A stretch of DNA of 64,000 nucleotides from Vicinamibacterales bacterium (lineage in GTDB: Bacteria; Acidobacteriota; Vicinamibacteria; Vicinamibacterales; JAMQPK01): assembly GCA_963787755.1 (NCBI GenBank), contig CAWBEG010000002.1, positions 351,101-415,100 on the forward strand, read 5' to 3'. The position numbers and the translations under genes are program-made. The notes under the pieces are model-generated. The model was not told the DNA's origin. It saw only the letters and a program-made list of their open reading frames with translations, and searched no databases. Shown piece by piece: positions 22,167 to 34,205 of this stretch. Within the stretch, counting starts at the first letter, position 1, and each line of letters opens with the position of its first letter.

Positions 22167-23113
22167 ATGATCCGTCACGATTGGACGACCGAACACGTCG
22201 AAGCCCTGTATCATCTTCCGCTCACCGAGCTGCTTTTTCGCGCCCAGACGGTTCATCGCCAGCATCACGATCCCACTTACGTTCAGCGCTGCACGTTGCT
22301 GAGCATCAAGACCGGCGGCTGTCCCGAAGATTGCGCGGTACTGTTCGCAGAGCGCCCACTATGAAACAGGAGTGGCGCGCACCGGGCTGATGGACCGCGA
22401 AGCCGGTACTAGCGGCCGCGCGCACTGCGAGAGACAACGGATCGACACGCTTCTGCATGGGTGCCGCGTGGCGTGACGTGCCTGACGGCGCCGCGTTCGA
22501 CGCCGTGCTGGATATGGTGCAGGAAGTTGCGGCGCTTGGCATGGAGGTGTGCACGACGCTCGGCATGCTGACGCTCGAGCAGGCGCACCGGCTCAAATCG
22601 GCCGGCCTCACGGCCTACAACCACAATCTCGATACGTCAGCGGAGTTCTATCCCAGGATCATTACCACGCGCACGTATCAGGATCGCCTCGACACGCTTC
22701 AACATGTACAGGATGCGGGTCTCAGCGTCTGCTGCGGCGGCATCATCGGCATCGGCGAGTCGTCGCGCGATCGCTGCGCGATGCTCGCGCAGCTCGGCCG
22801 TCTCGATCCGCATCCCGAGAGCCTGCCGGTGAACGTGCTCGCGCGCGCTCCCGGGACGCCGCTCGCCGATGCGGAGGATCTCGATCCGATCGAGCTGGTC
22901 CGCACGATTGCGTCTGCGCGGCTGGTCGCACCGAAGGCGCGCGTGCGATTGTCGGCAGGGCGGCTCGCGTTGTCTGACGAAGCGCAGGCGTTGTGTTTCG
23001 TCGCGGGCGCCAATTCCATTTTCTCGGGCGAGAAGCTGCTGACTGCGCCAAACCCCGCGGTCGACGACGATCAGCAGCTGATGAACCGGCTGGGCCTCCG
23101 ATTTCAGGCATGA
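22167..23113 (+). CDS. bioB: Biotin synthase, frame broken twice
   Basis: [14 protein letters not shown](Y)C is the radical-SAM motif, followed by MGAAWRDV..., YNHNLDTS and [10 protein letters not shown]. Breaks occur at about 22340 (gcGGta) and about 22405 (gaagCCgg), each a one-base excess in a G/C run. Confidence 0.85.
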
Positions 23114-24276
23114 ATCCACGGCAGGAATTTGAAGATCGTCTTGCAGCCGCGCTCGCCGAGCTGCGAGGCGCGGGCCTGCTGCGACAAATGCGGCTCCCGA
23201 TCGGGATCGATCTTGTCTCGAACGACTACCTCGGGCTTGCCGAACATCCGCATTTAAGAGAGAGAATGCGCGCCAGCGTCGCCGACCTTCCCGCCGGGTC
23301 CGGCGGTTCGCGCCTTCTGCGTGGTCATCATGAAATATTCGAGATCATCGAAGAGCGGCTCGCAGCGTTCACGGGTTCCGAGTCCGCGTTGCTCTTTGGA
23401 TCCGGATACGCAGCCAATATCGGGCTGCTGCAGGCCGTCGTGTCGACAGACGATCTGATCGTGTCCGATGCGCGCAACCATGCGAGTCTCATCGACGGCA
23501 TCCGTCTGACGAAGGCGGCGACCGCGATTTATCCGCACCAGGACTTGAACGCGCTCGAGGCGGTGCTTTCACAACCCCGCAGAGGGCGCGCGCTGGTCAT
23601 CACCGAAAGCGTGTTCAGCATGGATGGCGATCTGACGCCACTGCGCGAGATCTGCGATATCGCCGAGCGCGCGCGTGCCGTCGTCATCGTCGACGAGGCG
23701 CACGCGACGGGGATGTACGGGTCGCGCGGATCGGGACGCGTCGAAGAGCTTGGCCTGCGCGATCGTGTCGTCGCCACGATGCACACAGGAGGGAAGGCGC
23801 TGGGCTCCGGCGGCGCGTGGGTGGCCGGATCGCGCGCGCTGCGCGATGTGATGGTGAATCGTGCGCGCTCGTTCATTTTTTCGACGGCGCCGCTGCCCGT
23901 CCTGGGTGCGGCGCTTGGCGCGGGGCTGCATCTCGTCGAGCGCGAGCCGGAGCGGCGGCGCGAGGCGCACCGGAAGGCGTGCGTATTGAGAGGTGCGCTT
24001 CGTGAAAATGGCGTGCAGGCCGACGGCGAGTCGATGATCGTGCCGATCATCGCGGGCGCGAACGAGGCGGCGACAGCTTTGCAGTCTGGTTTGTCGGCCG
24101 CCGGCTTCGATGTGCGCGCCATCCGACCGCCGTCGGTGCCTGCGGGCACCGCGCGGTTGCGTGTGACCGTCCGCTATCCTGTGGCCGATGCCGATCTGGT
24201 GCGATTCGCGTCCGAGGTCGCGCGACTTACGTATCACGTAAAAATGGGGTCTGACCCTCTTGCCACCAACCCCTGA
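23110..24276 (+). CDS. bioF: 8-amino-7-oxononanoate synthase
   Basis: ATG at 23110 overlaps the bioB stop (ATGA). [23 protein letters not shown] and a [11 protein letters not shown] region containing the PLP lysine are present. Confidence 0.9.
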
Positions 24277-25625
24277 GGATATTCGACGCTGGGATGCGGA
24301 CCATGTCTGGCATCCGTTTACCCAGATGCGCGAATACCTCGCCACCGAGCCGCTGGTTGTCGTGCGCGCGGAGGGCAACTACCTCATAGACGATCGCGGC
24401 AGGCGCCTGCTCGACGGCACATCGGCGCTGTGGTGCAACCTTCTCGGACACCGCGTTCCAGAAATCGACGCTGCGGTTAGCTATCAGCTTGGACGATTTG
24501 CGCACACCACGCTGCTGGGTACGACCCATCCGGCAGTGGCCGAGCTTGCGCGGCGGCTCGTCGAGATCGCCCCGGGCGGGCTGAATCACGTGTTCTTCTC
24601 AGACAACGGCGCCACGGCCGTGGAAGCCGCGCTGAAGATGGCGTTCCAGTACCGGCTGCTCACGCAGGGCAGCGAGGCCGCAAAACACGCGGTCTATCTG
24701 AGCCTCGGCAACGCGTATCACGGCGACACGCTTGGCGCCGCGGCTGTCGGCGGCGTCGAGCTCTTCCACGACATCTTCAAGCCAATCCTGCTTCCGTCGC
24801 TGAAGACACCGTCTCCGGTACTGCTATCGATGTCCGGTTGGAAAGACGCCGTCGGACTGCTCGATCGATTGCGCCGATGAACTGGAGCAGGCGCTGCGCC
24901 GCGCGGAGGGTCGTGTGTGTGCCGTGATTCTCGAGCCTGGCGTCCAGGCCGCTGCTGGGATGCTGACGCTGCCGTCAGGTTTTCTGTCGCGCGCCGCCGA
25001 GGCGTGCCGCGCGCACGGCGCGCTGCTGATTCTCGATGAGGTCGCCACGGGATTCGGCCGCACGGGAACGATGTTCGCGTGTCAACGCGAGGGAGTGACG
25101 CCGGACCTGATGTGTGTCGCGAAAGGGCTGACGGGCGGCTATCTTCCTGTGGCAGCCACTCTGGCCACCGATCGGGTCTACGACGCGTTTCTCGGGCGTT
25201 ACGATGAATACCGCCATTTTTTTCACGGCCACACTTACACGGGCAACGCGCTCGGGTGTGCCGCGGCGCTGGCGACGCTCGGGCTGCTGTCGGATGGTGT
25301 CATCGTCGGCGCGGTCGAGCAGAAGGCGGGAGTGCTGCGAGATGCCCTTGCGCCGCTTGCCGCGCATCGCCACGTCGGCGACATCCGGCAGGCCGGTCTC
25401 ATGTGCGGCATCGAGATCGTCTCCAATCGCGAGACGAAAGCGTCGTTTGCGCCAGGCGAGCGCAATGGATACCACATCTGTCTCGCGCTTCGCGATCGAG
25501 GAATTTTCCTTCGGCCGCTCGGTGATGTGATCGTGCTGATGCCGCCCTTGTCGGTGACCGACGCTGAGCTCCGGCATCTCGCTGCATCAGTCCACGCAGT
25601 CGTCGTGGAGCGATTCGGTGCGTGA
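24260..25625 (+). CDS. bioA: Adenosylmethionine-8-amino-7-oxononanoate aminotransferase, frame broken
   Basis: TTG start. HVWHPFTQM, FFSDNGATAVEAALKMA, LILDEVATGFGRTG, CVAKGLTGGY and HGHTYTGN are present. The frame changes near 24850-24900. Confidence 0.85.
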
Positions 25626-26277
25626 CCTGCTTGTGACCGGAACCGATACCGGCGTCGGCAAGACGATGATTGCCGCTGCGCTCGTGACCGCCTTACGCGC
25701 CCGCGGGCTGCGCGCGTTGGGATTCAAACCTGCGGAAACGGGAGTGGGCGCTGACCACCGGACAGACTCGGACGTGCTGGCGGACGCCTCGGGAGAGCAG
25801 AACGTGCTGGCGCGCCCACTTCTGCAACTCGCTGAGGCGCTCGCGCCGGCAATCGCCGCCGAGCGTGCCGGGGTAACCCTCGATCGCGACGACATCGAAG
25901 CGCGAATCAGACGGTTGCGGAACGACGGCTACACGCTGGTCGTCGAGGGGGCAGGGGGAGTCATGGTGCCGCTGAGTTGGGGCTATACCGTCCTCGACCT
26001 TGCTCAGGCGTGCGACCTCGATGCCGTCGTCGTCGCCCGCGCCGGCCTCGGCACGCTGAATCACGTCGTCATGACAGTAATGATGCTGCGGTCACACCAG
26101 ATACCCATCCGCGGCATTGTCTTGAACGGGCGAAATGCAGAGCCCGACGTGGCGGAAGCGACGAACCCTTACGCTCTGAGCCGGATGCTCCAAGGCGTCC
26201 GCATCCTTGAAATCCCGTATGACGCGTCAGGCGCGCCTATTACGGTCGCAGCAGGGCTCGTCGATGGACTTCTCTAG
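25618..26277 (+). CDS. bioD: Dethiobiotin synthetase
   Basis: The GTG start overlaps the bioA end. LLVTGTDTGVGKT is the P-loop, and VVEGAGG is present. Confidence 0.9.
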   Translation: MRDLLVTGTDTGVGKTMIAAALVTALRARGLRALGFKPAETGVGADHRTDSDVLADASGEQNVLARPLLQLAEALAPAIAAERAGVTLDRDDIEARIRRLRNDGYTLVVEGAGGVMVPLSWGYTVLDLAQACDLDAVVVARAGLGTLNHVVMTVMMLRSHQIPIRGIVLNGRNAEPDVAEATNPYALSRMLQGVRILEIPYDASGAPITVAAGLVDGLL

Positions 26278-26442
26278 TCCCAAAGTGCACCTTTGAGGTT
26301 CAAAACAGCACACACAGGTAATTGCTAGTATTTCGGCGCAAATTCGCGCCTTCTGCCAGATAGACCAGGAATGGGCCATATTGAGTGTTCAGTAATGCTC
26401 TAATGTCATTTCAGTGTCTAAAGAGTCATCTTTACATGTCTT

Positions 26443-26478
26443 GCCTATAACTCATGTTTATACAATGAGTTATAAGGC
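26443..26478. promoter_or_regulatory. Near-perfect inverted repeat in the AT-rich leader of the first subtilase gene (candidate operator)
   Basis: gcctataactcat (26443-26455), a 9-nt spacer, then atgagttataaggc (26465-26478). It lies about 55-90 nt upstream of ATG 26532 and overlaps a TACAAT hexamer. Confidence 0.35.
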
Positions 26479-26531
26479 ATATGTATTCACTATGGTCACG
26501 TTGGCAGCCCGATTGCTCTTCAAGCTGCCGT

Positions 26532-29072
26532 ATGGATACTCGAATCGCTCGTTTGAGACAAATAGTGATGGTTCTTGGGGTGACAGCGTTGGCTGTTCCC
26601 GGCGCTGCATACGCGCAAGCGGCACCCGATGCGAAGCTCGACGAGTCGCTTCGGGAGTCCGTCGAACGTGGGTGCGTCGGAACCCAGCCGGTCATCATCA
26701 GGACTAAACGCGGCTATCGCCAGGCAGTTCGGGATTCGCTGACAGCCCACGGCGATGTCATCAAAGGGGAGTTTCCCTCGCTCGATGCGATCGCGGCCGT
26801 CGTCCACTGCGACGACCTCTCGACGCTTCCGGCGTTCGACTTAGTCTTGTCCGTTTCGCTGAACGGCCCCGTAGCCGTCCAGGGGCTGACCGTGCCGATC
26901 TTGACCAGCACGGCGCAGCCAGCCGTCACGACCGCGCGTGCGACCCTCGTGGCAGCAAAGGCCAGCGCGCTCGAGGCGCAAAAGGCTGTGGGCGAGGCGG
27001 AGAAGGCCGCAGCGCTTGCCAACTCGCAGGTCACCGCGGCGAAGGAGGCGTTGATCGTCGCCAACCGCCTGACGGGCGATGCGAAAATCACGGTGATTGC
27101 GACGGCGCAGGCAAAGCTGGTGCAGGCAGAGGCCGTTCAGGACGCTGCACAGAATACGCTGGAGACGGTGCGCAGGACCGCAACCGGTTTGCAGGCGTCG
27201 GCGCTCAACGCGCAGAAGGCATTCGTCGATGCACAGGAACAGTCTCTGGGAGGAGTATTGTCGATCCGCGAGCGCGAAGGCAAAGCAGCGCGTTCGCTGA
27301 AGAAGAAGTTTTTCGCGACGATGCCCGTCCGGGCATCGCAATTCCACACCGATGCCGAGTTCGATAACGAGACCGTCGACTACACCTCGCTCGAGGCGTA
27401 CACGCAGACCGGTGGCGGCGCCGGCGTTGGCGTGGCCGTTGTCGACTCGGGTATCGAGCCGGGCACCGACTTCGACAGTCGGATTGCGGCGTTCTACGAC
27501 TTCACGCACGGCGACATCCGCGCAGTGACACCCATGGATCCGTACGGCCATGGCTCGCACGTCGCGGGGTTGATCGCGAGTGAGTTCGTTGGCGTCGCAC
27601 CCAACGCGCGGCTGATTGGCCTGCGCGTGCTCAATGAGGAGGGGCAGGGCGACACGGCGAACGTCGTGCGCGCCATCGAGTTCGCGATTGCGAACAAGGA
27701 CCTGCTCGGCATCGACGTCTTGAATCTCTCGCTCGGCCATCCGATTTATGAGCCGGCAGCGAGCGACCCGCTCGTGCAGGCCGTCGAGCACGCGACGCGT
27801 GAGGGCATCGTCGTCGTGGTTTCGGCCGGCAACTTCGGTTTGAACAGGAAGACGGGTGTTGCGGGCTACGGCGGCATCACATCGCCCGGCAACGCTCCAT
27901 CGGCGCTGACGGCAGGCGCCGTGCGCACGTTCAATACCGTGACTCGCGTCGACGACCGCGTTGCGCCCTACAGCTCGCGCGGGCCTTCGTGGTACGACGG
28001 CTTCGCAAAGCCCGACTTCGTCGCGCCCGGCGATAACCTGCTTTCTATCGCAGCCGCCGGCAGCGCACTTCGCCTGGCACAGGAACAGCGCGGTAATACC
28101 GGGAATTACATGCGCCTCTCGGGCACCAGCATGGCGGCTGGCGTCGCGAGCGGCGTCGTGGCGCTCGTGCTGCAAGCCAACGGCGATCTGACACCGAACG
28201 CGGTGAAAGCCGTGCTCGAGTACACCTCGATTCCGGTGCTCGACGACGACGGCAGCCGGTTCGATCCGCTCGCGCAGGGCGCCGGCCAGATTGAAGTGAC
28301 TGGATCGGTGGCGCTGGCGCGCGCCATCAATCCGCAGGCGCCCGTCGGAACGCCTTGGTTGTCAACGACGCTGACACCCTCGACCATCATCGGTAACCAG
28401 TCGTATGCCTGGTCGCAGTCGATCATCTGGGGCGCCCGTCGCGTCGTGGGCGAGCAGCTGATGACCGAGCAGCGTCCCGCATGGGGTCTCAACATCATCT
28501 GGGGCGAGGGCCTCGGTAATGAAGACGACAACATCGTCTGGGGGAATAACTTCGGCGATGACGACAACATCGTCTGGGGCAATTCGTTCGACGATGACGA
28601 CAACATCGTCTGGGGCAACAACCTCGTCTGGGGTGAGTCGCTCGGCGACGACGACAACATCGTGTGGGGTAATAAGTTCGACGACGATGACAACATCGTG
28701 TGGGGCAATAGGTTCGACGACGACGACAACATCGTGTGGGGCAACAACATTGTATGGGGCTCGAGCCTCCTCGGCCTTAGCCTCGACGACGACAACATCG
28801 TCTGGGGCAACAGCGACGATGACAACATCGTGTGGGGGAACCTCGACGACGACAACATCGTGTGGGGCAATCTCTACGACGACAACATTGTGTGGGGCAA
28901 CAGCGACGACGACAACATCGTCTGGGGTAACGACCTGGGTGATGACGACAATATCGTGTGGGGCAACACCTCGCAGCTCGGCAGTGTGTTCAAGTGGAGC
29001 GGCGGGTTTGTCTCAAGTAAAGCGTCGGACGCACGCGCTCGGCGTACCGTCCGCAGGGGAGGGGTGAACTAG
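26532..29072 (+). CDS. Secreted S8 subtilisin-like serine protease with an Ala-rich coiled-coil insert and a C-terminal DDDNIVWGN repeat array
   Basis: The signal peptide is MDTRIARLRQIVMVLGVTALAVPGAAYAQA, followed by an I9-like propeptide. The catalytic motifs are VAVVDSGI (Asp), YGHGSHVAG (His), SAGNFG and SGTSMAAG (Ser). The protein ends in 12 full DDNIVWGN units. Confidence 0.85.
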   Translation: MDTRIARLRQIVMVLGVTALAVPGAAYAQAAPDAKLDESLRESVERGCVGTQPVIIRTKRGYRQAVRDSLTAHGDVIKGEFPSLDAIAAVVHCDDLSTLPAFDLVLSVSLNGPVAVQGLTVPILTSTAQPAVTTARATLVAAKASALEAQKAVGEAEKAAALANSQVTAAKEALIVANRLTGDAKITVIATAQAKLVQAEAVQDAAQNTLETVRRTATGLQASALNAQKAFVDAQEQSLGGVLSIREREGKAARSLKKKFFATMPVRASQFHTDAEFDNETVDYTSLEAYTQTGGGAGVGVAVVDSGIEPGTDFDSRIAAFYDFTHGDIRAVTPMDPYGHGSHVAGLIASEFVGVAPNARLIGLRVLNEEGQGDTANVVRAIEFAIANKDLLGIDVLNLSLGHPIYEPAASDPLVQAVEHATREGIVVVVSAGNFGLNRKTGVAGYGGITSPGNAPSALTAGAVRTFNTVTRVDDRVAPYSSRGPSWYDGFAKPDFVAPGDNLLSIAAAGSALRLAQEQRGNTGNYMRLSGTSMAAGVASGVVALVLQANGDLTPNAVKAVLEYTSIPVLDDDGSRFDPLAQGAGQIEVTGSVALARAINPQAPVGTPWLSTTLTPSTIIGNQSYAWSQSIIWGARRVVGEQLMTEQRPAWGLNIIWGEGLGNEDDNIVWGNNFGDDDNIVWGNSFDDDDNIVWGNNLVWGESLGDDDNIVWGNKFDDDDNIVWGNRFDDDDNIVWGNNIVWGSSLLGLSLDDDNIVWGNSDDDNIVWGNLDDDNIVWGNLYDDNIVWGNSDDDNIVWGNDLGDDDNIVWGNTSQLGSVFKWSGGFVSSKASDARARRTVRRGGVN
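28521..28967 (+). repeat. In-frame tandem coding repeat: 12 full plus 2 short units of (x)1-4 DDDNIVWGN
   Basis: The DNA unit gacgacgacaacatcgt(c/g)tgggg(c/t)aa(c/t) recurs with a 30-36 nt period. The protein reads NEDDNIVWGNNFGDDDNIVWGNSFDDDDNIVWGNNLVWGESLGDDDNIVWGNKFDDDDNIVWGN... Confidence 0.95.
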
Positions 29073-29737
29073 TGGCCACCCACATGCCGTCCACCTCCTC
29101 CTACGCGGAAATGCCCGTGTCCATGGTCAACACGAGCGTCACAGCGGCAGTCAGTTCGGATTGGAAGGCGCAGCTGCCAGTTCTTCAGGCGAAGGGCATC
29201 ACGCTGCGCGAGCTTCGCGTGAGTGATGCGTCCGCTCTGCTCTCACTGCTGACGACCGAAGAAGTGACCCGCTTCATCTCGCCGCCTCCGACGACGGTTG
29301 ATGGCTTCGAGCGGTTCATCCAGTGGGCGCAGCGCGAACGCGAAGCGGGACGATATATCTGCTTCGCGGTCGTGCCCGCCGGCTGCGACACGGCAGTGGG
29401 ACTCTTTCAGATTCGGCAGTTGGATTCGACGTTCGGTACCGCCGAATGGGGCTTTGCGCTCGGCTCGGCATTCTGGGGGTCCGGCCTGTTCGTGTCCGGT
29501 GCGGAGCTCATGATTGATTTCGCGTTCGATGTAGTTGGCGTGCATCGGTTGGAAGCTCGGGCTGCGGTCGAGAACGGCCGAGGCAATGGCGCGCTACGCA
29601 AGATTGGCGCAGTGCAGGAGGGTGTTTTGAGAAAGTCATTCCTTCGTAACGGTCGATTCCTGGATCAAGCCCTGTGGGCGATTCTTCCCGAAGACCGCTA
29701 TCGTCCGAAAGCGGTCTGGGGCTCGAAGGTTAACTAG
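29072..29737 (+). CDS. GNAT N-acetyltransferase, RimJ/RimL (Acetyltransf_3)-like, translationally coupled to the subtilase
   Basis: GTG at 29072 overlaps the protease TAG by 1 nt (TAGTG). LRELRVSDASALLSLL, WGFALGSAFWGSG, VHRLEARAAVENGRGNGALRKIGAVQEGVLRKSF are present. There is no signal peptide. Confidence 0.85.
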   Translation: MATHMPSTSSYAEMPVSMVNTSVTAAVSSDWKAQLPVLQAKGITLRELRVSDASALLSLLTTEEVTRFISPPPTTVDGFERFIQWAQREREAGRYICFAVVPAGCDTAVGLFQIRQLDSTFGTAEWGFALGSAFWGSGLFVSGAELMIDFAFDVVGVHRLEARAAVENGRGNGALRKIGAVQEGVLRKSFLRNGRFLDQALWAILPEDRYRPKAVWGSKVN

Positions 29738-30075
29738 CTATCAGTCGTTTTTCCGGTCGCTCCCCCTCACGCGACAGCAGAGCTCGGACTCGCGCCCAAA
29801 ACGCGGGTCCGACTGTTTCCGTCGACGTGTTCGCCGTTCCAAAGAGACAACTCGTGCGCCGGACGGCACACGCTCCAAGAGCCTCGAAATCCCAGCAAAA
29901 TCGAAAGTTTCTCCATTGATCGCAGATTTTTCGATCGCGGCGTTTTCAAAATTACATAGAAGGCATGCGGCGCTGCCCGAGGTTCTGTTGCCGTTAATCA
30001 CCCTAATATCCACGGCTGCCACAATTTAGCGAATACCAGTCCCAGCCCATAACGACGTGGTCACCGCCTTGCTCT

Positions 30076-31917
30076 ATGGCGGGCATGGATCAGAGATACC
30101 TATCGCACGCCTTGGTGGCAATCGCGATCGCGGTTGCTCCGGGCAAAGCTGTTTGGGGAAAGGAACGCCCGATCCCCAACGGCAAACTCGATAAGCACCT
30201 TCAGGCGGTGGTCACGGATGGCTGCTCTGGAGGATCGAGGCGAGTCATCATCAGCGTCAAGAGTGGTTACCGCAAAGGAATGGGGGACGCGCTCAAGGCC
30301 CATGGCGATAAGGTAAAGGGAGAGTTCAAATCGATTGATGCCGTCGCGGCAGAGGTTCACTGCGATGACCTCGGCGCGCTCGCGAACATGTCGGAGACCA
30401 CGTCGATCTCGATCGATGGGCCGATGGACACTCACGCCGTCGCTCGAGGGAAGAAGACGCCCACGCTTACGCAGGCTCAAGCGGCTGCCGCGCTTCAGGC
30501 TCCGGTTTTCCAGTCGACGCTGTCCTGGCCCCAGCTTCGCGCGGCCAGCTATCTCGGCTCGCCGTACACCTCGACGGATAACTCACTTAGAAACACCGTT
30601 AACGCGCTCCTTGACGCCGGCATAACCGGGGCCGCGGGCGGTATCGGCATTGCGGTTATCGATTCTGGCATTGCTCCGGGGCCCGAATTCGAGAATCGCA
30701 TCACGGCATTCTACGACTTCACCAAAGGCGACATTCAGGCGGTCGCTCCTCTCGACTCGTACGGACATGGCACACACGTCGCCGGACTCATTACCGGCAC
30801 CAACGTCGGTGTGGCGCCCGGGGCACGCGTTATCGGATTACGAGTGCTGGACGCCAATGGTAAGGGGACAACGAGCGACGTGCTTCGCGCCCTCGAATTC
30901 GCGGTCGAGAACAAGGCGGCTCTGAATCTGCACATCATCAACCTGTCTCTCGGCCATCCGATTTATGAGTCCGCCGGCACCGATCCGTTGGTGCAGGCTG
31001 TCGAAAACGCGGTGCGACACGGTTTGATTGTCAGCGTGTCGGCCGGCAACTTCGGCATCAACAAGAAGACTGGCGAGCCAGGTTACGCAGGCATTGCGTC
31101 ACCTGGGAATGCGCCTTCGGCGATCACGAGCGGCTCGACCAACATGTTCGACACGATCAGGCGAGTCGACGATCGCGTTTCAGCGTTCAGCTCGCGCGGG
31201 CCGACGTGGTACGACGGTTTCCTGAAGCCGGATGTCGTTGCTCCTGGCCAGAACGTCCTCTCCGTCGCAGCGGTTGGGAGCCGCCTGCGGATGATGCAGG
31301 AGCTCCGCGGCAATACGGGCGAGTACATGCGCCTGAGCGGAACGAGCATGGCGGCGGCTGTTACAAGCGGTGTCATCGCGCTCACGATCGACATCAACCC
31401 GAAGCTGACGGCGAACGCTCTCAGGGCCGTTCTTCAATATTCCGCCATCCCAGTGCTGAGCAGCACCGGTGCAACAGCCGACGCGCTGACACAGGGCGCC
31501 GGCCAGATCAACGGGGGCGGCGCGATCGCGCTTGCGTGGGTGATTACCGCCGATGCGCCGATGGGTTCGAAGTGGCTGACAGCCGGCCATCAGACGATCA
31601 CACCGACGACGGACATCGGTGACAGCAAATACACCTGGTCGCAGTCGATCCTTTGGGGTGCACGGAGGCTGTCGGGCGCGAATCTGATGACCGAGCAGCG
31701 GCCCGCGTGGGGCGCGGGGATTGTGTGGGGCGAGGGCCTTGGCAGCGAAGACGACAACATCGTGTGGGGCAACAGCTTCGCTGACGACGACAACATCGTC
31801 TGGGGAAATGCCCTCGACACCGATGACAACATCGTCTGGGGTAACAACGACGATGACAATATCGTCTGGGGCAACAGTCTTCTCACGACGTCGTCAGGAA
31901 AGGGTGGCAAACAATAA
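30076..31917 (+). CDS. Secreted S8 subtilisin-like serine protease, paralog of 26532..29072, with 4 DDNIVWGN units
   Basis: It has the same propeptide (KGEFKSIDAVAAEVHCDDL), IAVIDSGI, YGHGTHVAG, SAGNFG and SGTSMAAA. The C-terminus reads GSEDDNIVWGNSFADDDNIVWGNALDTDDNIVWGNNDDDNIVWGN. It lacks the coiled-coil insert. Confidence 0.85.
   Translation: MAGMDQRYLSHALVAIAIAVAPGKAVWGKERPIPNGKLDKHLQAVVTDGCSGGSRRVIISVKSGYRKGMGDALKAHGDKVKGEFKSIDAVAAEVHCDDLGALANMSETTSISIDGPMDTHAVARGKKTPTLTQAQAAAALQAPVFQSTLSWPQLRAASYLGSPYTSTDNSLRNTVNALLDAGITGAAGGIGIAVIDSGIAPGPEFENRITAFYDFTKGDIQAVAPLDSYGHGTHVAGLITGTNVGVAPGARVIGLRVLDANGKGTTSDVLRALEFAVENKAALNLHIINLSLGHPIYESAGTDPLVQAVENAVRHGLIVSVSAGNFGINKKTGEPGYAGIASPGNAPSAITSGSTNMFDTIRRVDDRVSAFSSRGPTWYDGFLKPDVVAPGQNVLSVAAVGSRLRMMQELRGNTGEYMRLSGTSMAAAVTSGVIALTIDINPKLTANALRAVLQYSAIPVLSSTGATADALTQGAGQINGGGAIALAWVITADAPMGSKWLTAGHQTITPTTDIGDSKYTWSQSILWGARRLSGANLMTEQRPAWGAGIVWGEGLGSEDDNIVWGNSFADDDNIVWGNALDTDDNIVWGNNDDDNIVWGNSLLTTSSGKGGKQ
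31747..31875 (+). repeat. In-frame tandem coding repeat, 4 DDNIVWGN units
   Basis: The same 24-nt core as 28521-28967. Confidence 0.9.
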
Positions 31918-32562
31918 TGGCCACCCAAATGGTCGAGACGTTTTCATCGCCGATCACCCGAACGACGACAGTTGTTGACGCACATTGGCGGAAAGCGCTG
32001 CCGGTTCTGCACGGCAAAGGTTTCACGCTTCGTGAACTGCGCGTTACCGACGCCACCACGCTACTCTCACTGCTGACGACTGAGGAAGTGACGCGGTTCA
32101 TCTCGCCGCCCCCGACGACAGTCGCCGGTTTCGAGCGGTTCATCCAGTGGGCCCAACGCGAGCGTGAGGCAGGACGCTATGTCTGCTTCGCGGTCGTGCC
32201 CGCCGGCTGCGACACGGCAGTGGGACTCTTTCAGATTCGGCAGATGGATTCGACGTTCGGGTACCGCCGAATGGGGTTTTGCGCTTGGCTCGGCATTCTG
32301 GGGGTCCGGCCTGTTCGTGTCCGGTGCAGAGCTCATGATTGATTTCGCGTTCGATGTAGTTGGCGTGCATCGGTTGGAAGCTCGGGCTGCGGTCGAGAAC
32401 GGCCGAGGCAATGGCGCGCTACGCAAGATTGGCGCAGTGCAGGAGGGTGTTTTGAGAAAGTCATTCCTTCGTAATGGTCGATTCCTGGATCAGGCGCTGT
32501 GGGCGATTCTTCCCGAAGACCGCTATCGTCCGAAAGCCGTCTGGGGCTCGAAGGTCAACTAG
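31917..32562 (+). CDS. GNAT N-acetyltransferase, paralog of 29072..29737, one frame break
   Basis: ATG at 31917 overlaps the protease TAA by 1 nt (TAATG). The break is at GGG 32259-32261, where the paralog has GG. The 3' ~400 nt are nearly identical to 29340-29737. Confidence 0.75.
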
Positions 32563-32574
32563 GAGTCACCAGGT

Positions 32575-32802
32575 TTGACGCTGCGCGAGCTACGGGCCGG
32601 CGACGCGGGCTCGCTCATCTCGCTTCTCACGACGGAAGAAATGGCATGTTTCATTTTGCCTCTCCCGACGACGTTGGAAGGCGAGGAAGGCATCTTGAGA
32701 CAGTCATTTCCTGGGAGCGGGCGGCATCATCAATCGCTCTGGTCGATTCTTCGGGAAGACTGGTATCGGTCGAAGGCCGTTTGGGGATCGAAGGCGAGCT
32801 AG
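32575..32802 (+). pseudogene. Internally deleted third GNAT copy
   Basis: LTLRELRAGDAGSLISLLTTEEMACFILPLPTT is joined directly to EGILRQSF...WSILREDWYRSKAVWGSKAS. The N-terminus and the catalytic core are missing. Confidence 0.6.
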
Positions 32803-32819
32803 CAGATAATCGTGGGCGC

Positions 32820-33986
32820 GTGTCGCGTCCGCTGCTCGTTATCTTCCTCACGGTCTTCGTCAATCTCGTCGGCTTCGGCATCATCATTCCGCTACTGCCG
32901 TTCTACGCGGAGACATTTGGTGCGTCTCCGGTTGTCATCGGCCTGCTGTTCGCGGCTTTCTCTCTTGCCCAGCTCGTCGCCGCACCCGTCCTCGGCGCGC
33001 TCTCGGATCGATTCGGCAGGCGCCCGGTGCTGATTTTCAGCCTCCTTGGGACGGTCATCAGCTTCGCCATGCTCGCGGTCGCGCACAGCCTCGCGATGCT
33101 TTTTGCGGCGCGTGTGATCGACGGGTTATCGGGCGGCAACATCACGATCGCTCGGGCGTATATCGCGGATGTTACCGAGCCGCACGAGCGAGCGAAGGCA
33201 TTCGGCTTTCTCGGGGCCGCCTTCGGCCTGGGCTTCATTGTCGGACCAGGGCTCGCCGGGCTGTTCGCTCATATCAGCTACACCGCACCCATCTGGGCCG
33301 CCGCTGCGGTGACGGCCGCCGCCGCGGCAATGGCCTGGCTGTGGCTTCCCGAGACCGTCCATCGCGGCAGCGCGGTCTCCGTGTCGCCACTCCGCGCGCT
33401 GCCGGAAGTGCTCAGCCGCGCGCATCTGCGTCCCCTGTTGATCGCCGATTTCGTGTACTGGTGTTCGTTTGCCGTGTGCACCACGACATTCGCGCTCTTC
33501 GCATCGCGGCGCTTCGGATTCGACGTCGTTCGCACCGGATACGTGCTCGCGGCATTCGGACTGCTCGGCGTCATCGTGCAGGCTGGCATCGTGGGCCTCG
33601 TGGCGCGCAAGATCGGCGCCCGCCGAACGCTGCTGACCGGACTCGTCATTGCCGCGGCGGGATGGGCGCTCGTCGCGGCTTCGAGCACGGTGCCGATGTT
33701 TTTGCTTTCACTGATTCCGGCGGGCATCGGCGTCGGATTGTGCAATGCGACCATCGTGACGCTCGTGAGCCACAGCGGATCGAAGGACGAGCAGGGCACC
33801 GTGCAGGGCGCTGCCGGAGCACTCGAGAGCCTCGGCCGCGCGATCGGACCGATGTGGGGACACGGCGCACTGCAGCGTTTTGGTGAGGGCAGCGCATACG
33901 CCACTGCCGCGGTTGCGTTTTTCGCCACCACGTTTCTCGTGTTCAGCTACCACGCTCCACCCGAAAGCCCGAACGATCTGCCATAG
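32820..33986 (+). CDS. MFS transporter (DHA1/tetracycline-efflux-like)
   Basis: GTG at 32820. About 12 TM helices are present. GALSDRFGRRPVL is the MFS motif A, and ARVIDGLSGGN is present. Confidence 0.85.
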   Translation: MSRPLLVIFLTVFVNLVGFGIIIPLLPFYAETFGASPVVIGLLFAAFSLAQLVAAPVLGALSDRFGRRPVLIFSLLGTVISFAMLAVAHSLAMLFAARVIDGLSGGNITIARAYIADVTEPHERAKAFGFLGAAFGLGFIVGPGLAGLFAHISYTAPIWAAAAVTAAAAAMAWLWLPETVHRGSAVSVSPLRALPEVLSRAHLRPLLIADFVYWCSFAVCTTTFALFASRRFGFDVVRTGYVLAAFGLLGVIVQAGIVGLVARKIGARRTLLTGLVIAAAGWALVAASSTVPMFLLSLIPAGIGVGLCNATIVTLVSHSGSKDEQGTVQGAAGALESLGRAIGPMWGHGALQRFGEGSAYATAAVAFFATTFLVFSYHAPPESPNDLP

Positions 33987-34007: not shown

Positions 34008-34190
34008 TTGCCTCGCGGCATTCCTGCTGTGCCTGCTGTCGATCGCTGGTGCGCCGTACGGGCCGCTGCCGACGCGCAGACTGGCGCGACGATCACGATT
34101 CTCCATATCAACGACGTGTACGAGATAGGTGCGATCGACGGTGGCCGCTACGGCGGTCTCAGCCGCGTGGCGACAGTGCTGCAGAGATAA
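34008..34190 (+). pseudogene. N-terminal ~60 codons of a 5'-nucleotidase/metallophosphoesterase, truncated
   Basis: ...AADAQTGATITILHINDVYEIGAIDGGRYGGLSRVATVLQR is followed by a stop and unrelated sequence. The signal-peptide part is in another frame. Confidence 0.5.
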
Positions 34191-34205
34191 ACACGCGTCG
34201 CTGCC

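Follow-up and report, generated by a model that had tools for sequence, protein, structure and literature searches.

The window analysed here, a stretch of 64,000 nucleotides (nt) from a Vicinamibacterales bacterium of the Acidobacteriota (GenBank assembly GCA_963787755.1, contig CAWBEG010000002.1, positions 351,101 to 415,100), carries two tandem copies of a two-gene module in which an S8 (subtilisin-family) protease, predicted to be secreted and bearing a C-terminal array of acidic DDNIVWGN units, is followed at once by a cytoplasmic acetyltransferase of the GNAT family. This protease-GNAT pairing is maintained across independent genomes and metagenome contigs, about a hundred in all. Its components, a subtilase and a GNAT, are of known kinds; the repeat and the coupling are new. 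A sequence-only reading of the window had placed the module twice between the bio operon and a truncated nucleotidase gene, and this is where it stands: the genes for PROT1, GNAT1, PROT2, GNAT2, the remnant of a third GNAT (GNAT3), and a TetA-like MFS transporter follow each other in this order on the plus strand at 26532-33986. The arrangement is not due to chance, because the canonical array units differ from each other by synonymous changes alone and the same arrangement recurs in dozens of other genomes. We consider it very probable that protease and GNAT are directly linked in function, and we tentatively propose that the GNAT is an active, trans-acting safeguard partner of the protease.

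Conservation of the protease-GNAT pairing

By our definition, a module comprises an S8 protease that bears an xVWG array at its C-terminus and a GNAT of the subfamily that begins <=5 nt after it or overlaps it, and both modules of the window have this form. Relatives were collected in two scans. One, of genomes, was seeded on the array and returned 36 loci; it searched two peptide patterns, so its taxonomic breadth is a lower bound. The other, of metagenomes, was seeded on the GNAT motifs and returned 80 loci, with 64 testable GNAT genes (those with at least 250 nt upstream). A homologue of GNAT1 (61-87% identity) was found directly downstream of the protease in 31 of the 34 genome loci with enough downstream sequence, and a protease lies beside 63 of the 64 testable metagenome GNATs. 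Fifty-eight of these 64 are preceded by at least three xxWG motifs within 700 nt; of the remaining six, four are followed at once by a family protease, one is preceded by a Pro/Thr-rich tail resembling the tails of the family proteases P0075 and P0254, and one was left unassigned. The coupling, which the sequence-only reading had called non-standard, is therefore by no means confined to the window locus but recurs widely, in three genomic contexts.

In the near clade, which includes the window, the order is bioBFAD-[module]n-MFS; in a second context the modules follow an SBP_bac_5 gene and two ABC permease genes; and in a third they are found in the order ruvB…[module]n-queA…tilS. When all open reading frames (ORFs) of the loci were clustered, the protease and the GNAT were the only genes common to all genome loci. 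The MFS gene follows the module in 16 of the 36 genome loci, all of them near-clade loci with a syntenic bio operon. The MFS gene noted earlier as the exporter of the system is thus real, but because it is confined to the near clade and absent from the distant contexts, it is a neighbour and not a component of the conserved core. The modules number one to four per locus, with four in locus L022, and their GNATs (61-93% identity) are more conserved than the S8 domains, which are 42-50% identical in distant loci.

Almost all genome loci belong to metagenome-assembled genomes of Vicinamibacterales or other Acidobacteriota, and most homologues come from soil metagenomes; the module is specific to the Acidobacteriota, is centred on the Vicinamibacterales, and is duplicated in tandem in the window. 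The nearest relative of the window is a Vicinamibacterales genome (L012; 83% nucleotide identity). Three loci labelled Bifidobacteriaceae and Hydrogenedentales (L003, L010, and L016) carry genes 87-94% identical to those of the window and are probably mis-binned.

The start codon of the GNAT shares one nucleotide with the stop codon of the protease in both window modules, exactly as had been described: in TAGTG at 29070-29074, the GTG start of GNAT1 overlaps the TAG stop of PROT1, and in TAATG at 31915-31919, the ATG start of GNAT2 overlaps the TAA stop of PROT2. Of 46 pairs in the family, at least 27 overlap by a single nucleotide (TAATG or TAGTG), 3 overlap by 4 nt, and about 7 are separated by a 2-nt gap (TAATCATG). 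A Shine-Dalgarno sequence serving GNAT1, GGGGAGGGG, lies within the last codons of PROT1, and GGAGG-like Shine-Dalgarno sequences are found inside the final protease codons across the family pairs. The protease C-termini frequently read …GG[LFI] (L022-L033; 29049-29069 in the window) because a GGAGG-type Shine-Dalgarno sequence is translated in frame, and we rejected a sorting signal as their explanation for this reason. A programmed frameshift that would join the GNAT to the protease was likewise considered and dropped, as no obvious slippery sequence was seen in the stop-codon contexts. The public protein P0073, in which the array is fused to the GNAT, reads like a frameshifted gene call.

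Proteases, repeat array, and acetyltransferase

PROT1 (26532-29072, plus strand) comprises 846 amino acids from its likely start, an ATG at 26532, in an ORF of 863 codons that opens at 26481, and PROT2 (30076-31917, plus strand) comprises 613. Both belong to peptidase family S8: their scores against Pfam Peptidase_S8 (PF00082) are 165 and 157 bits, respectively, against a gathering cut-off of 21.8, and the Asp, His, and Ser motifs (DSG, HG(S/T)H, and GTSMA), which had been described as intact, were located in each. The S8 domain of PROT1 lies at 27417-28244 (residues 313-588 of the 863-residue ORF), spans profile positions 1-274 of 288, and carries VVDSG at 27438, HGSHV at 27549, and GTSMA at 28122; that of PROT2 lies at 30640-31476. 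The S8 core of PROT1 was modelled confidently by AlphaFold2 (residues 301-863 of the ORF, 74 homologues), and the best structural matches of this core are Vpr (8jmw), Tk-SP (3afg), and subtilisin BPN'. Judged by eye, a signal peptide is plausible on both proteases; the putative Sec signal peptide of PROT1 (26532-26621) reads MDTRIARLRQIVMVLGVTALAVPGAAYA and is followed by QA. The end of the PROT2 signal peptide (30148-30162) reads GKAVWGK and so contains the same KAVWG string as the GNAT tail described below. The I9 propeptide claimed earlier for these proteases could not be confirmed, since no Pfam family, Inhibitor_I9 (PF05922) included, matches either N-terminal region even at E<=10, although these regions may still adopt an I9-like fold. 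In PROT1, but not in PROT2, the pro-region is separated from the S8 domain by an inserted Ala-rich stretch of ~150 residues that resembles a coiled coil (…AQKAVGEAEKAAALANSQVTAAKEAL…; ~26900-27350).

Subtilases with C-terminal extensions, such as Bacillus Vpr, Thermococcus Tk-SP, and the aqualysin type, share with these proteases the S8 triad, the pro-region, the signal peptide, and a C-terminal segment, whereas here that segment is a DNIVWG array with no family, PDB, or AlphaFold2 assignment, the pro-region has no I9 match, and a downstream GNAT is obligate. Neither the IetAS/IteS system nor the mycosins of type VII secretion account for the proteases (IteS, 50 bits against a cut-off of 900; mycosin, 116 against 279), and no IetA ATPase or ESX partner gene is present among the neighbours of the module loci. 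PADLOC assigned neither gene of the module to a defence system: the proteases show generic subtilase similarity and the GNAT has no match. Four loci also contain a paralogous S8 protease (L024, 2450-4150, minus strand; L027, 0-1478; L029, 1-1144; L030, 2529-3776), which is divergently oriented and lies upstream of the SBP_bac_5 gene and the two ABC permease genes, which in turn are followed by protease-GNAT modules. The complete paralogue of L024 bears a variant repeat, (D/E)ILVWG(N/D); the copies of L027, L029, and L030 are truncated or frameshifted, and an array is not visible in them.

The array of PROT1 occupies 28410-28973 and consists of degenerate leading units (SQSIIWG and LNIIWG), 12 canonical DDNIVWGN units, and 3 variants (LNIIWGE, NNLVWGE, and NNIVWGS), spaced 6, 10, 12, or 16 residues from unit to unit, and the array of PROT2 (31636-31875) has 4 canonical units. 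Across the family, the number of these acidic units, which read (D)DNIVWG(N/T) and are almost identical to each other, ranges from 4 to 20 per protease. The 187 residues of the PROT1 array include 38 Asp, 29 Asn, 24 Gly, and 17 Trp (20% Asp and 9% Trp), together with 1 Lys and 4 Arg, and the canonical units have no side-chain amine. The canonical units vary at synonymous sites only (in PROT2, pairwise codon comparison gives 18 synonymous differences and 0 non-synonymous ones), so their sameness is kept by selection on the peptide and is not solely the outcome of recent duplication; in other words, the units are under purifying selection.

The array matches no family in Pfam (E<=10) or NCBIfam and no PDB sequence, nor does the RTX nonapeptide model (PF00353) match it even at E<=10. 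A WD-repeat protein, the lone PDB match (E 0.01), was judged spurious. In the literature searched, "NIVWG" in this sense is absent, the one full-text match being an unrelated mathematics paper, and a search for subtilase, GNAT, and Vicinamibacter gave nothing relevant; the repeat is, as had been suspected, not a named domain. AlphaFold2 assigned no fold to the canonical units, for which the predicted local distance difference test (pLDDT) is 34-49, but modelled the first degenerate unit within a four-stranded sheet at a pLDDT of ~90, with SIIWG forming a strand and a turn. When 1.84 billion representatives were searched exhaustively with phmmer, the array turned up in 566 clusters (E<=1e-3; clusters at 50% identity). 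It is an appendage of S8 proteases only, as 31 of the 32 long matches contain Peptidase_S8 and the single other match, a eukaryotic repeat protein, is unrelated. Long Pro/Thr-rich tails follow the array in some clades, and one family member additionally bears RTX repeats. The array region yields long spurious ORFs in other frames (28106-28870, minus strand; 28519-29067, plus strand; PHTMLSSS… and TTTSSG…). Among the homologues (P0005-P0116), many public gene calls are frameshift chimeras, in which, for example, "RRQHRLG" is DDNIVWG read one base off.

GNAT1 (29072-29737, plus strand, GTG start) is an intact protein of 221 amino acids with no signal peptide; a search of contigs for this exact sequence gave no record. 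It belongs to the GNAT family by its match to Pfam Acetyltransf_3 (PF13302; 79 bits against a cut-off of 25.4), the RimJ/RimL type, and the motifs E125-W-G-F, W135-G-x-G, and N168-G-R-G…K177-x-G are invariant in 10 diverse members, which, from the known biology of the family, suggests an active enzyme. It falls far below the NCBIfam equivalog cut-offs for RimL (21.5 against 184), RimJ (19.3 against 190), and SpeG (25.3 against 218); with 19-21 bits against RimJ/RimL cut-offs of 184-190, it is not an orthologue of either and thus not shown to be the generic ribosomal-protein acetyltransferase that would have spoken against a special partnership. The nearest solved relatives are TTHA1799, YdaF, PA3270 (PacT), RimJ, SpeG, and MccE, all with family-level similarity only (MccE, E 1.4e-5), and a fold search with the GNAT1 model returned only the generic relatives RimJ, RimL, SpeG, MccE, and PacT. 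The family has an N-terminal extension of its own, which is 30-40 residues long, variable, and disordered. At the C-terminus, 108 of 134 GNATs (loci L001-L116) end in K[AS][VI]WGxx[VA][HN], whose xVWG motif resembles the protease unit; this tail lies at 29696-29734, 32521-32559, and 32761-32799 in the three window copies, and it could be a pseudo-substrate, a binding mimic, or a coincidence. Residues 163-221 of the GNAT1 model, the region that holds the KAVWG tail, have a pLDDT <50.

The other two copies are not intact in the assembly. GNAT2 (31917-32562, plus strand, ATG start) is broken as assembled, since an extra G at 32256-32265 splits the frame into ORFs 31917-32342 and 32164-32562, and its 3' 300 nt are 97% identical to GNAT1. 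It may be a real pseudogene or the product of an assembly indel. The latter is conceivable because two further genes of the same assembly are frameshifted relative to their 88%-identical orthologues in locus L001, bioA (24260-25622; frame 2 to 3 at ~24817) and bioB (22167-23110; frame 3 to 1 to 2 at ~22330 and 22405). The earlier count of two protease-GNAT copies thus stands in full for the first module and, as assembled, lacks an intact GNAT in the second. The description of the third GNAT as internally deleted proved accurate: GNAT3 (32563-32802, plus strand) has lost its catalytic core in frame (…TTLEG joined to EEGILR…) together with its start codon and is certainly dead, although its C-terminal …KAVWGSKAS tail is retained. 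Decayed GNAT copies also stand beside intact proteases in L004 and L016, and such decay, as in GNAT3, argues that one GNAT serves several proteases in trans.

Possible roles of the coupled acetyltransferase

In the reading that we prefer, to which we give a probability of roughly 0.35, the GNAT would be a self-protection enzyme made whenever the protease is made. The protease would be exported by Sec, and ribosomes that re-initiate at the protease stop codon would translate the cytoplasmic GNAT. The array would be unfolded in the cytoplasm and would become, outside the cell, an acidic appendage for binding, anchoring, or metal-dependent folding. The target of the GNAT is probably the array-bearing precursor or the W-G-delimited peptides derived from it: the array is what all partner proteases have in common, and the DNIVWG unit and the GNAT are the most conserved elements of the module. 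Enzymes of this type classically acetylate alpha-amino groups, and since the canonical units have no side-chain amine of their own, the most economical chemistry would be to N-alpha-acetylate fragments that are formed in the cytoplasm or reach it. The logic would be like that of staphopain and staphostatin and the chemistry like that of RimJ, RimL, and MccE. In the staphopain-staphostatin and SpeB-Spi pairs, a secreted protease is accompanied by a co-transcribed cytoplasmic safeguard, and the order is the same as here, with the protease followed by a small cytoplasmic protein in one operon and the partner made together with the protease; those safeguards are non-enzymatic inhibitors of cysteine proteases, whereas here the partner is a GNAT with the family motifs that apparently acts in trans. 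RimJ/RimL-type N-alpha-acetyltransferases, MccE included, are of the same Pfam family (PF13302), and their alpha-amine chemistry would fit cleaved array peptides, although the equivalog scores are far too low and the N-terminal extension and C-terminal KAVWG tail set the present family apart from RimJ, RimL, and SpeG.

Several points weigh against a safeguard enzyme. The cytoplasmic safety of a secreted protease normally comes from its propeptide and not from a second gene. Three array loci (L021, L034, and L036) have no GNAT, and the paralogous proteases with the ILVWG repeat lack a GNAT of their own. The type of GNAT tail tracks the type of array unit at the level of clades, NIVWGN occurring with AVWG and NIVWGT with SVWG, VIWG, or TVWG, but this co-variation may reflect phylogeny alone, and we did not use it as evidence of an interaction. 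The models lend no structural support, AlphaFold2 confidence being low for the array as well as for the C-terminal third of the GNAT. The safeguard mechanism and its acceptor are inferred from sequence evidence, and cleavage between W and G is pure inference.

The same tight coupling 3' of the protease would also suit a cognate inhibitor, that is, a GNAT-fold protein that binds prematurely folded protease and fills its cleft with the xVWG tail, acetyl transfer being secondary or lost. The resemblance of the conserved K[AS]VWG tail to the protease's own unit would then have a ready meaning, and staphopain/staphostatin and SpeB/Spi are established cases of such logic. We nevertheless regard such an inhibitor as rather improbable, as the GNAT motifs are invariant across the family, about 20% of its members lack the tail motif, and the decay of GNATs beside intact proteases (GNAT3 of the window, L004, and L016) favours catalytic action in trans over a stoichiometric inhibitor. 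It is unlikely, too, that the GNAT acylates or acetylates a side chain of the precursor before export in the manner of HlyC, with the array folding outside, on binding Ca2+, into a solenoid like a beta-roll, as the sequence-only reading had suggested by analogy with RTX toxins. The GNAT is made right beside the emerging C-terminal array, the array is acidic and unfolded in AlphaFold2, as expected for ligand-dependent folding, its first degenerate unit was modelled as a beta-hairpin, and one family member bears RTX repeats as well. RTX toxins with their HlyC/ApxC enzymes likewise combine an acidic repeat array on a secreted protein with a cytoplasmic acyltransferase gene in the operon, and the repeats are expected to fold only outside the cell, as here. 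However, this suggestion found no direct support: there is no obvious acceptor, with no amine in the canonical units, 1 Lys among the 187 array residues, and no conserved Lys in the variable C-terminal tails; PF00353 does not match; the spacing of 6 to 16 residues is unlike that of a regular solenoid; and the partner is an Acetyltransf_3 protein (PF13302) outside the toxin-activating acyltransferase family. The gene order is also reversed, and export would use a Sec signal instead of the C-terminal type I signal of RTX proteins. Membership in the RTX and toxin-activating acyltransferase systems can thus be set aside.

The array may be read instead, as the sequence-only reading also proposed, as a precursor that holds many copies of a peptide and is fused to the protease that would cut it. 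DDNIVW-type peptides would be the product and serve as signal, metal binder, or antimicrobial, with the GNAT tailoring or immunising and transporters handling the peptide. Extreme conservation of each unit combined with free copy number (4-20) and variable spacers speaks for a precursor of this kind, as do the joint conservation of unit and GNAT and the presence of SBP_bac_5 and permease genes beside the module in one clade and of the MFS gene in another; GNATs are reported in ribosomal peptide pathways (PMC8784127). Cyanobactin PatE with the S8 proteases PatA/PatG, and the borosin fusions, offer precedents for many near-identical units, for an S8 protease, and for an enzyme fused to its substrate. 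Here, in contrast, it is the unit that is conserved, and the spacers of 0-4 residues are too short for cores. The PatA/PatG model (TIGR03895) gives 34 bits against a cut-off of 421, and no other maturation genes are conserved nearby. Apart from the unit there are no conserved cleavage signals, the array is internal in several clades and followed by long Pro/Thr-rich tails, neither transporter is conserved family-wide, and a cytoplasmic GNAT cannot reach extracellular peptides unless they are re-imported, so we give the peptide precursor little chance. The parts of the sequence-only version fared unevenly: its exporter falls away with the restriction of the MFS gene to the near clade, and its tailoring enzyme faces a problem of topology, because only cleavage outside the cytoplasm would expose a free alpha-amine, while self-protection is compatible with the data. 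No mcc-like genes are found among the conserved neighbours, and with MccE similarity at the family level only, the GNAT is not assigned to microcin C-type immunity. We also think it a long shot that protease and GNAT form a new kind of enzyme-substrate pair, in which the protease would excise up to ~20 of its own product peptides, acidic and ending in Trp, between W and G, and a dedicated N-alpha-acetyltransferase would tailor or neutralise them in the producer.

Finally, the two genes might have no direct link, the GNAT being a general detoxifying or metabolic enzyme that forms a resistance couple with the MFS transporter here and whose only connection with a nutritional exoprotease is their shared operon. 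The GNAT family is broad and acts on many small molecules, the nearest structures include SpeG, MccE, and YdaF, and the MFS gene lies directly 3' in the near clade. An independent GNAT is quite unlikely all the same, since an array protease adjoins 63 of 64 GNATs of the subfamily, across three unrelated contexts, the overlap of stop and start codons is conserved, and the distant clades have no MFS gene. A toxin-antitoxin role was considered because PacT of the GNAT-Xre pair PacTA (PA3270/PA3269) is among the closest solved structures, with 27-28% identity in the structural alignment (PMC9561280). No Xre or other small antitoxin gene stands beside the GNAT here, the only conserved neighbour being a protease of 600-900 amino acids, and a type II system with an Xre or ribbon-helix-helix antitoxin does not describe the module.

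Neighbouring genes and significance of the family

The module block begins directly 3' of bioD, whose stop codon is at 26277, with the bio operon upstream, and a spacer of 338 nt separates GNAT1 from PROT2. The spacers had been described as AT-richer, and their G+C fraction is indeed lower (0.52 at 26000-26499 and 0.56 at 29500-29999) than elsewhere (0.63-0.66). A promoter and terminator scan of the locus found nothing above shuffled expectation. Downstream of the modules, a long ORF (32499-33986) joins sequence derived from GNAT3 to the TetA-like MFS gene (32820-33986, plus strand), the true start of which is probably the GTG at 32820 (MSRPLLVIFL…). Its product is a transporter of the DHA1 type with 12 transmembrane segments; it scores 256 bits against the generic Pfam MFS_1 model and, with 233 bits against a cut-off of 475 for NCBIfam tet_MFS_A_B_C_D, is not a member of the Tet(A)/(B)/(C) group. 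Beyond it lies a nucleotidase remnant of 47 codons (34056-34196), which corresponds to residues 23-69 of a 5'-nucleotidase/metallophosphoesterase-like protein of 496 amino acids. The full-length gene stands after the MFS gene in the relative L001 (12488-13978), which, together with the remnant, indicates a deletion 3' of the MFS gene in the window genome.

The array proteases form a large, previously undescribed family of secreted proteins (566 clusters at 50% identity) of the Vicinamibacterales, an order for which metagenome-assembled genomes are almost the sole source. They bear a new short repeat that domain libraries, solved structures, and AlphaFold2 leave unexplained, and their coupling to an acetyltransferase has no precedent in the literature searched. 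For annotation, the array with its downstream GNAT is a convenient marker of the family, and it is also a warning, as the array provokes frequent frameshifted gene calls in metagenome-assembled genomes from long reads. Depending on the mechanism, the module would represent a new means of self-protection from an exported protease, a new modification before export, or a new ribosomal peptide system; if the multi-copy peptide reading were true, it would add a new class of ribosomal peptides in one of the most abundant orders of soil bacteria.

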